Assembly: GCA_036521195.1 (NCBI GenBank)
Contig: DATDID010000040.1
Coordinates: 65,979-129,978, forward strand
Direction: 5' to 3'
Length of the DNA stretch: 64,000 bases
Origin: Candidatus Dormiibacterota bacterium
GTDB taxonomy: Bacteria; Chloroflexota; Dormibacteria; Aeolococcales; Aeolococcaceae
The translations under genes and the position numbers were made by a program. Shown one piece after another: positions 18,156 to 19,100 of this stretch. The notes beneath the pieces are model-generated. The model did no database searches, was not told where the DNA came from, and worked only from the letters and a program-made list of their open reading frames with translations. Each line of letters opens with the position of its first letter. Position 1 is the first letter of the stretch.

Positions 18156-18491
18156 TCAGGCCGCCGCGCGCAGCGAGTCGCGAACGCTCGCGAGCCACGC
18201 GGGAGCGGTGACACCATCGGTCTCAGCGACGTAGTTGCAGTCGAGGCCGTCGGCGAGCATCCGAGCAAGTGCGATGTCGTCGAACCCGGCGTCGAGCAGA
18301 CGGTCGATGTCGTTCGCCGCGGCAGTCGCAGTCTCTGGCGACGTGTCCTGGATGAACGCCTGCAGCGCCTCGTCCGACGACGCATGGTCCTGGCGCCAGT
18401 CCTGGTGGAAGTAGCCGCCGAAAAGCTGGGCGAGCGCAGGGTAGTCCGCCGCCGCGCCGGCGATGGTTTCCGTGTCGATCGTGCCGTTCAT
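18156..18491 (-). CDS. CdiI-type immunity protein (CdiI_2-like)
   Basis: YPALAQLFGGYFHQDW motif; acidic helical protein whose GGAG SD overlaps the toxin stop codon. Confidence 0.8.
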   Translation of the reverse strand: MNGTIDTETIAGAAADYPALAQLFGGYFHQDWRQDHASSDEALQAFIQDTSPETATAAANDIDRLLDAGFDDIALARMLADGLDCNYVAETDGVTAPAWLASVRDSLRAAA

Positions 18492-18501
18492 GTCGATGCT
18501 C

Positions 18502-18972
18502 CTAGTGTCGCTTATCGCGAAGCGGGGTACGGGTGGGGTACGCGGTCACCAGCGTGAAACCGCCGGGCAGCTCGTCGTTGCGGCGCAGCACGAGGCGGAC
18601 CGCGGTGACCTGGGTGGGAACGACGACGCCGCGACTGACGTCGGCGTACGTCAGGACGTGGCCGACGATCTCACCCATGTCCTCGACGAAGGTGTACGGC
18701 GCGCGCTTGTCGCGCCCCGCGAGCCACGCGGCGATGTCTGCGCTGCGCCGTGTCACGGCGACATCCACGCAGCGCTGCGCCGTCGCCCTGCTGACGAAGC
18801 GGCCCGCGGCGGCAACGCCTTCGCGCAGGATGCGGCGCATCTCGTCGCCGGGCTTGGTGTCGACGTGGCGCCGAAGCGTATGGCCGCCCCGTGCCTCGTA
18901 GACGCTGAGGTCTTCGACCGGAATCCGGCGGGGACGTGGCCCCGGGGCCGGCCGGCCAATGCCGTCGAGCAT
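18502..18972 (-). CDS. stand-alone RNase A-like toxin domain (CdiA-CT RNase_A_bac type); start 18972 or 18978
   Basis: E..GGHTLRRHV near the N-terminus and GFTLVTAYP at the C-terminus; GAAGGGAG SD upstream. Confidence 0.75.
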   Translation of the reverse strand: MLDGIGRPAPGPRPRRIPVEDLSVYEARGGHTLRRHVDTKPGDEMRRILREGVAAAGRFVSRATAQRCVDVAVTRRSADIAAWLAGRDKRAPYTFVEDMGEIVGHVLTYADVSRGVVVPTQVTAVRLVLRRNDELPGGFTLVTAYPTRTPLRDKRH

Positions 18973-19100
18973 GCGCATCTCCCTTCGCAGCTGGTGCTGA
19001 GCGGCTCCAATGCCGCGATGCGCCGAAGTGTCTCGGCGACCGGCGGACATCGAGCAGACGGTGCCGGGCGGGCGATGCCCGAACGCATAATCACGGCGCC

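Follow-up and report, generated by a model that had tools for sequence, protein, structure and literature searches.

What would a toxin of bacterial competition do in a genome that gives it no evident means of delivery? The question is raised by two adjacent genes, both on the minus strand, in a stretch of 64,000 nucleotides of contig DATDID010000040.1 (assembly GCA_036521195.1, Candidatus Dormiibacterota); the whole of this stretch is referred to here as the window. The first gene encodes a ribonuclease (RNase) A-like toxin and the second a CdiI-type immunity protein. An earlier note, made from the letters of the window, had described them as an orphan pair without a delivery domain: a polymorphic-toxin tip converted into a cytoplasmic toxin-antitoxin (TA) or anti-phage module, or an orphan cassette. 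The reading favoured here, which is given an even chance of being correct, is that of a domesticated, chromosomally fixed cytoplasmic RNase-inhibitor module of a TA-like kind. All of the evidence comes from metagenome-assembled genomes (MAGs) of an uncultured soil lineage, Candidatus Dormibacterota. The pair is made up of the following features.

18502 to 18972, minus strand: toxin gene, a stand-alone RNase A-like protein (RNAse_A_bac, PF18431) of 156 amino acids; from Pfam, the match to 5E3E_B and the start codon alignment
18979 to 18985, minus strand: ribosome-binding site of the toxin gene, AAGGGAG (GGAGGAC in most species); from the alignment of 18 orthologous upstream regions
18156 to 18491, minus strand: immunity (inhibitor) gene, a CdiI_2 protein (PF18593) of 111 amino acids; from Pfam, the match to 5E3E_A and co-occurrence
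18499 to 18504, minus strand: TAGGAG, the ribosome-binding site of the immunity gene, which contains the toxin stop codon TAG and lies 7 nt ahead of the immunity ATG; read directly from the sequence

The open reading frame (ORF) of the toxin spans 18502-19050 from stop to start (182 amino acids). In the alignment of 18 orthologous upstream regions, the ATG at 18972 (M-L-D-G-I) is the sole universal start, and the ATG two codons upstream, at 18978, is present in only a few species. The toxin is taken to be 156 amino acids long because only the ATG at 18972 is universal and is preceded by a ribosome-binding site. This agrees with the earlier note in the length of the ORF and in the presence of a Shine-Dalgarno sequence of its own. 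The note had placed the two genes at 18156-18978; both are found there, but the toxin end is corrected to 18972. The GGHT..RRHV and VTAYP motifs, noted earlier as GGHT..RHV and a terminal TAYP, are both read in the 156-residue protein.

PF18431 is the sole Pfam domain in the toxin and is covered over its full length (profile positions 1-113 of 113; E=1.3e-16, 61.9 bits, cut-off 27). The protein also matches chain B of Protein Data Bank (PDB) entry 5E3E, the nuclease domain of the Yersinia kristensenii CdiA-CT (E=1.3e-10), and has an isoelectric point (pI) of 10.7. Approximately 17 residues precede the conserved core, and 29 the Pfam domain, in line with the 20 or so counted in the earlier note. 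The N-terminal stretch of about 17 residues is disordered, Pro/Arg-rich and starts M-L-D-G. An M-x-L-D-G motif with a Pro/Arg-rich stretch at this end (18925-18972, minus strand) recurs in other genera and in paralogues outside this locus. The tail that follows TAYP at the C-terminus varies in sequence and is always Arg-rich. Both terminal segments lie outside the crystallised fold.

For the Y. kristensenii CdiA-CT, His175, Arg186, Thr276 and Tyr278 have been found to be required for activity (Batot et al. 2017, PMC5435912), and His170 has been argued to be catalytic as well (Mushegian et al. 2020, PMC7297114). When the toxin is aligned to 5E3E_B with HMMER, its H31, H36, R47, T143 and Y145 fall at the positions of His170, His175, Arg186, Thr276 and Tyr278, respectively. 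None of the five varies among 26 aligned homologues, down to 53% identity, and the same set is retained in 40%-identical orthologues of another genus. The AlphaFold2 model has a mean predicted local distance difference test score (pLDDT) of 89, with disorder confined to the first ~17 and last ~4 residues. In a Foldseek search of this model against the PDB, 5E3E was the sole significant match (chain B; template modelling (TM) score 0.90, target-normalised; root-mean-square deviation 1.8 Å; E=7.7e-9; ~26% identity). The first gene is thus predicted to encode a catalytically intact bacterial RNase A-like enzyme, and the assignment of the toxin to the RNase A fold of the CdiA-CT type is upheld by family, structure and catalytic residues alike.

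The immunity gene follows directly downstream, after a gap of 10 nt. CdiI_2 is the only Pfam domain found in its product (PF18593; E=7.5e-21, 75.1 bits, cut-off 26.7), which matches the cognate immunity protein in chain A of 5E3E (E=9.1e-7), carries the sequence GGYFHQDW and has a pI of 4.05. Both proteins are therefore above the cut-offs of the profiles against which the earlier note had proposed to search them. The overlap of the toxin stop codon with the ribosome-binding site of the next gene suggests translational coupling, as had been supposed for a YFHQDW immunity gene, and distant relatives show an overlap of 1-4 nt between the genes themselves. CdiI_2 is present in 75 and the toxin in 74 of the 117 genomes of the family, a nearly one-to-one co-occurrence, and within the genus there is one CdiI_2 match above the cut-off per genome. 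From homology to 5E3E and the opposite charges, the acidic inhibitor would be expected to sit over the active site of the basic RNase.

No part for delivery was recognised. The toxin begins MLDGIGRPAPGPRPRR, and neither in its first 30 residues, MLDGIGRPAPGPRPRRIPVEDLSVYEARGG, nor at the N-terminus of any orthologue is there a hydrophobic run; judged by this absence, the toxin and all orthologues have no signal peptide, lipobox or membrane anchor. No WXG100 gene (PF06013) was found in the genome to which the window belongs (89% complete; LXG was not searched), and a substrate of a type VII secretion system (T7SS) was discounted on this ground. The genome holds one copy of PF18431. No long exported toxin or carrier occurs at this site in more than 70 orthologous loci, so that the finding by which the earlier note would have been refuted, relatives in which the gene is a truncation of such a toxin, was made at none of them. 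Its report of no signal peptide and no CdiA, Rhs, WXG or LXG region is borne out. In some genomes, open frames of up to 625 amino acids lie upstream. These are the antisense strand of tdh, and a Tdh protein match (82-93% identical) occupies them in the orthologous loci. A truncated large toxin was rejected on the basis of the conserved start codon and ribosome-binding site together with the antisense nature of the upstream frame.

The pair is seated among housekeeping genes, as first noted. On its convergent side are genes for a CDP-alcohol phosphatidyltransferase (cdpOH), a small AsnC/Lrp-type protein, Lpd and a 1383-residue OdhA. On its divergent side are those for L-threonine 3-dehydrogenase (Tdh), glycine C-acetyltransferase (Kbl) and an extracytoplasmic function (ECF) sigma factor. 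The GC content at third codon positions (GC3) of the pair, 0.85-0.87, is that of the neighbours. The toxin protein is 100% identical to one on a Candidatus Dormibacteraeota MAG chromosome, OY970307.1.

Across the genus the pair is a fixture. It is single-copy in 42 of 42 genomes, and the toxin is intact in 41 of them; the exception is a split copy, in an assembly that also splits neighbouring genes. The gene order is identical in 41 species-level genomes, with sigma-kbl-tdh diverging from toxin-immunity, which converges on cdpOH-asnC, and with lpd and odhA next where the contig reaches. The same site is occupied in genera g5, g10, g218, g222 and g223 of the same family, where identity falls to ~40% for the toxin and ~30% for the immunity protein, making at least six genera in all. 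Two more distant metagenomic relatives (39-46% identity) also adjoin tdh-kbl. In genera that are without the pair the site is empty, with cdpOH 41-225 bp from tdh and no mobile genes. A tree of tdh and cdpOH unites the pair-bearing genera in one clade (Shimodaira-Hasegawa-like approximate likelihood ratio test 91), on which two state changes suffice and one is possible. The tree of toxin and immunity protein follows the host genera: of the four genera represented by several entries, three (g1, g5 and g10) form single clades (support 99), and the labels change the minimum number of times overall. A mobile or recently acquired cassette was rejected in view of the neighbour-like GC3, the empty sister sites without mobile genes and the congruent trees.

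The strength of selection was estimated as the ratio of nonsynonymous to synonymous substitution rates (dN/dS), calculated pairwise by the Nei-Gojobori method within the genus, in which the pairs are non-independent and the median dS is ~0.7-0.8. The values by protein are listed below.

Toxin: dN/dS 0.075
Immunity: dN/dS 0.229
OdhA: dN/dS 0.077
Lpd: dN/dS 0.080
Tdh: dN/dS 0.088
Kbl: dN/dS 0.057
cdpOH: dN/dS 0.151

On these figures, the RNase is as constrained as central metabolic enzymes and under strong purifying selection. Fixation, synteny, the trees and dN/dS together are most simply explained by one old acquisition at the tdh-kbl/cdpOH site in the ancestor of several genera, followed by vertical inheritance with purifying selection on the RNase. 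The pair is in this behaviour unlike polymorphic toxins, orphan cassettes and typical mobile TA and defence genes. Of the description given in the earlier note, the delivery-less toxin with its CdiI_2 partner thus stands, by the Pfam matches and the absence of a carrier, but the orphan cassette does not, given a pair that is fixed, syntenic over at least six genera, vertically inherited and constrained. The type II TA or anti-phage module that the note put forward is a plausible reading, although several features usual in TA and defence systems are lacking.

An exhaustive homologue search matched 504 cluster representatives. In distant homologues the RNase A-like domain is C-terminal in proteins of 200-1100 amino acids, and many short homologues have a signal peptide or membrane anchor, or start inside the pre-toxin motif ‘VPGGGL.AHE’. 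The nearest relatives are either leaderless single-domain proteins or proteins of ~300 amino acids with two tandem RNase A-like domains. Because these nearest relatives are themselves delivery-less, the conversion of a polymorphic-toxin tip is to be read as a presumed origin. Among the closest relatives outside the clade, none had an informative cluster name, and two were labelled only ‘hypothetical protein’. No homologue of the toxin or immunity gene, and no phage-borne anti-immunity gene, was present in 50,697 phage records. On plasmids, homologues occurred in the usual settings of T7SS or large toxins, in Bacillus and Streptomyces.

In the tandem proteins, the His/Arg/Thr/Tyr set is retained in one domain; its partner, as a rule the second domain, is without the catalytic His and often without the Thr/Tyr, and is likely a pseudo-enzyme domain. 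Examples are found at L043 747-1886 (genome G004), L045 1078-2223 (G119), L103 2566-3453 and L105 1345-2289 (G497/G500), and as proteins P0068-P0073. In G004 the tandem gene is at the usual site (L043, contig C15) with no adjacent immunity gene and with cdpOH within 7 nt, and the only CdiI_2 gene of this genome is on another contig (C39:34306-34581, L107). A genome of genus g225 (GCA_041691115.1, 77% complete) encodes three proteins with RNase A-like domains and has no CdiI_2 match at E<=0.1. One of the three genes, the tandem gene of L103 (JBEPVH010000031.1, 2566-3453), lies directly upstream of rpsL-rpsG-fusA-tuf-rpsJ. These incomplete MAGs hint that members of the clade can exist without a classical immunity partner, which would fit a domesticated role.

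Comparison with known systems begins with the CdiA-CT/CdiI pair of Y. kristensenii ATCC 33638 (5E3E). Both systems have a PF18431 toxin with the equivalents of His175, Arg186, Thr276 and Tyr278, and a PF18593 immunity gene directly downstream. In Y. kristensenii, however, the toxin is the strain-variable tip of a giant CdiA that is exported by CdiB, and it lies behind a VENN motif and a cytoplasm-entry domain. Here it is a free-standing protein of 156 residues, single-copy and fixed, at ~26% identity and with none of the export features. Homologues are typically C-terminal in effectors of type V, VI and VII secretion and are always beside immunity genes (Batot et al. 2017, PMC5435912), and some members of the family have been annotated as stand-alone ORFs (Mushegian et al. 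2020, PMC7297114). The locus shows no exported carrier (CdiA, Rhs, LXG/WXG, MafB or PT-HINT) with a pre-toxin motif, no rapid diversification and no immunity arrays, all of which are traits of polymorphic toxins. Other stand-alone RNAse_A_bac proteins, such as the RNase A-like domain-containing lipoprotein of NCBIfam NF041883, are likewise small and single-domain, but with a hydrophobic N-terminus that presumably directs them to export through Sec. The present clade has none and starts with M-x-L-D-G and a Pro/Arg-rich stretch; the toxin scores 27.5 bits against NF041883, for which the cut-off is 200. The stand-alone state is therefore already known, and the novelty appears to lie in a leaderless clade with core-gene behaviour.

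Similar to type II TA systems (RelBE, MazEF, HigBA), the pair is chromosomal and bicistronic, with a small, presumably cytoplasmic RNase and a likewise small acidic partner that would neutralise it through direct binding. It differs from them in its fold, in the toxin gene coming first, in the lack of a DNA-binding antitoxin domain and in being fixed rather than mobile or patchy. As in barnase-barstar, a basic RNase is paired with an acidic inhibitor protecting the producer, through specific tight binding in that system and predicted binding here. Barnase, in contrast, has another fold and a signal peptide and works extracellularly; no signal is found here. The ribocin (RbcN) of Pseudomonas aeruginosa PA14 is also a free-standing RNase A-fold protein, with equivalent His/Thr/Tyr residues, according to the available passages of its description (PLoS Biol 2026, PMC13189344). 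Those passages present ribocin as more divergent, with no recognisable Pfam domain, and as cleaving host ribosomes at helix 69, and they make no mention of a ribocin immunity gene; the protein in the window belongs clearly to PF18431 and is coupled to an inhibitor. The literature yielded no paper that treats PF18431/PF18593 pairs as TA or defence modules.

In the cytoplasmic RNase-inhibitor module favoured here, one mRNA would yield the RNase and the inhibitor together, with the ribosome-binding site of the latter overlapping the stop codon of the former. The inhibitor would cover the active site, as in 5E3E, and the complex would remain in the cytoplasm as a latent RNase. Once the inhibitor was lost or outnumbered, for example under stress or infection, the RNase would cut the RNA of its own cell (tRNA or rRNA), with the net effect of a TA-like brake on translation. 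A number of points weigh against this account. The action of the RNase inside its producer is inferred from gene anatomy. The M-x-L-D-G motif, Pro/Arg linker and Arg-rich tail could be an unrecognised export or docking signal, and purifying selection can also act on core, conserved effectors of secretion systems. A conserved module resembling a type IV secretion system (T4SS) lies ~13 kb from the pair. The classic features of type II TA (a DNA-binding antitoxin, mobility and patchiness) are absent, and the order is toxin-first. The phage records contain no homologue of either gene. PADLOC returned no match for the toxin and only an 11.8-bit noise match for the immunity protein, and a known defence system was rejected because nothing rose above noise. 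The neighbours are metabolic genes and form no defence island.

Several of these points would suit an exported antibacterial effector with its self-protection gene, leaving the cell by a carrier-free route such as the T4SS-like machine ~13 kb away, lysis or an unknown system, an account that is regarded as rather unlikely. It would further be possible, at the same low level of confidence, that the M-x-LDG/Pro-Arg segment or the Arg-rich tail is the recognition signal of a core weapon directed against other taxa and not kin. Positively charged C-terminal tails are typical of T4SS substrates, and the terminal segments outside the fold are conserved in kind. The toxin-then-immunity order is that of polymorphic toxin systems, and every pair-bearing genus but g225 has a VirB6-like channel gene. 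The family is also best known from secreted toxins, and the described homologues all have adjacent immunity genes (Batot et al., PMC5435912). Export is opposed by the lack of a signal peptide, transmembrane segment or LXG/WXG, Rhs, PAAR or VENN region in any orthologue and of a WXG100 gene in the genome. The pair occurs as one copy per genome, with no orphan immunity arrays and no toxin diversification. The VirB6-like gene itself is found in 106 of the 117 family genomes (19 of 22 genera), including the sampled pair-less genera except g4 and g224, and shows no specific co-distribution with the pair. A specific link to the nearby T4SS-like module was dismissed on account of this near-universal occurrence.

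Abortive infection would be the cytoplasmic model narrowed to one particular trigger: a phage would remove or titrate the inhibitor, and the freed RNase would halt translation before the phage cycle ends. The architecture of a cytoplasmic toxin with its neutraliser and the intact catalytic residues are compatible with this, many RNase TA pairs act by abortive infection, and an inhibitor that evolves 3x faster than the toxin would fit pressure from phage mimics or inhibitors. It is nonetheless held to be unlikely, as no PADLOC model rises above noise, the locus is in no defence island, and the phage records are devoid of homologues. Defence genes, moreover, usually turn over fast, while this pair is not mobile or strain-variable and is fixed in 42 of 42 genomes. 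That the pair is a functionless, decaying orphan cassette or the stranded tip of a larger exported toxin is highly improbable. Short as the gene is, in a family usually C-terminal in large toxins, its dN/dS of 0.075 is at the housekeeping level and its catalytic residues are invariant. The start codon and ribosome-binding site are conserved, and the gene is intact in all but the genome whose neighbouring genes are split as well. No remnant of a toxin body lies upstream, where the frame is antisense to tdh.

Between the toxin ATG and the tdh GTG (19101) is a divergent region of 128 bp, in which the 18-species alignment reveals three conserved elements. Two of them are given here.

19086 to 19091, no strand assigned: AT-rich hexamer, CATAAT (plus) or GATTAT (minus), 9 nt before the tdh GTG at 19101; from the 18-species alignment
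19002 to 19017, minus strand: GC hairpin in the presumed toxin 5′ leader, GCGGC, a variable loop of 5-8 nt and GCCGC; from the 18-species alignment

Around the hexamer, GTGATTATGCG is kept in 17 of the 18 aligned species and GTGATTATGC in all 18. The hexamer may be a candidate -10 element that is shared, on opposite strands, by tdh and the divergent toxin promoter, and the position of CATAAT 9 nt before the GTG suggests a leaderless or nearly leaderless tdh-kbl mRNA. The third element, the conserved block GAGAGACTGCGG, adjoins the hairpin in the presumed toxin leader (19002-19037, minus strand). Over the 18 species the 5-bp stem of the hairpin does not change, the sixth pair shows co-variation (G-C, A-T, C-G, G-T), and the loop differs in both length and sequence. 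The toxin leader had no match in Rfam, the fold of the whole leader is not unusually stable (z = -0.55), and a scan of the region for consensus promoters and terminators was empty. The hexamer, block and hairpin are accordingly offered as leads, not findings.

Further observations concern the surroundings of the locus. The OdhA at 11071-15222 (plus strand, 1383 residues) combines an N-terminal lipoyl-type domain with E2 and E1 parts in one chain, and is conserved across the genus. In the more distant lineages, tdh and the RNase gene are separated by an inserted gene for a GNAT acetyltransferase (L101 5401-5853, L046 2103-2603). The L101 locus also has a gene of 108 amino acids without a Pfam match after the immunity gene, and its nearby OdhA is a 941-residue, E1-only form. 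The VirB6-like channel gene of the T4SS-like module is at 4409-5350 (minus strand) in the window; as a rule it shares a contig with the RNase locus, at a distance of 13-25 kb. Three third-party MAG records (L002, DATLRX010000035.1; L005, DATKQX010000119.1; L008, DATLRB010000063.1) bear the titles Candidatus Acidiferrales or Saccharimonadales. Their toxins are 90-99% identical and their synteny is fully conserved with the Dormibacterota locus, and the titles are probably mislabelled.

Toxins of inter-bacterial warfare are usually viewed as fast-evolving, mobile and dependent on delivery, a view to which this locus is plainly an exception. It has the fold and the immunity family of such toxins with no delivery part, and the pair is kept at one site across genera under the constraint of enzymes of the tricarboxylic acid cycle. 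A tentative and rather doubtful extension of the favoured reading is that the pair is a bacterial counterpart of vertebrate angiogenin and its RNase inhibitor: an RNase A-fold enzyme that would have been captured long ago from the polymorphic-toxin pool, and that would now be a core, latent cytoplasmic enzyme across a Dormibacterota clade, kept in check by its own inhibitor and set free to cut tRNA or rRNA in a regulated physiological response. Domestication would then have gone a step further in the tandem relatives, in which one RNase domain is live and the other dead, in a genome without CdiI_2. Were the protein exported instead, the conserved motifs at its ends would indicate that a soil lineage, uncultured and little known, uses a secretion signal that has gone unrecognised. 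If the RNase acts in its own cell, the locus would show a weapon turned cellular regulator, and would provide a bacterial model for inhibitor-controlled enzymes of the RNase A fold.

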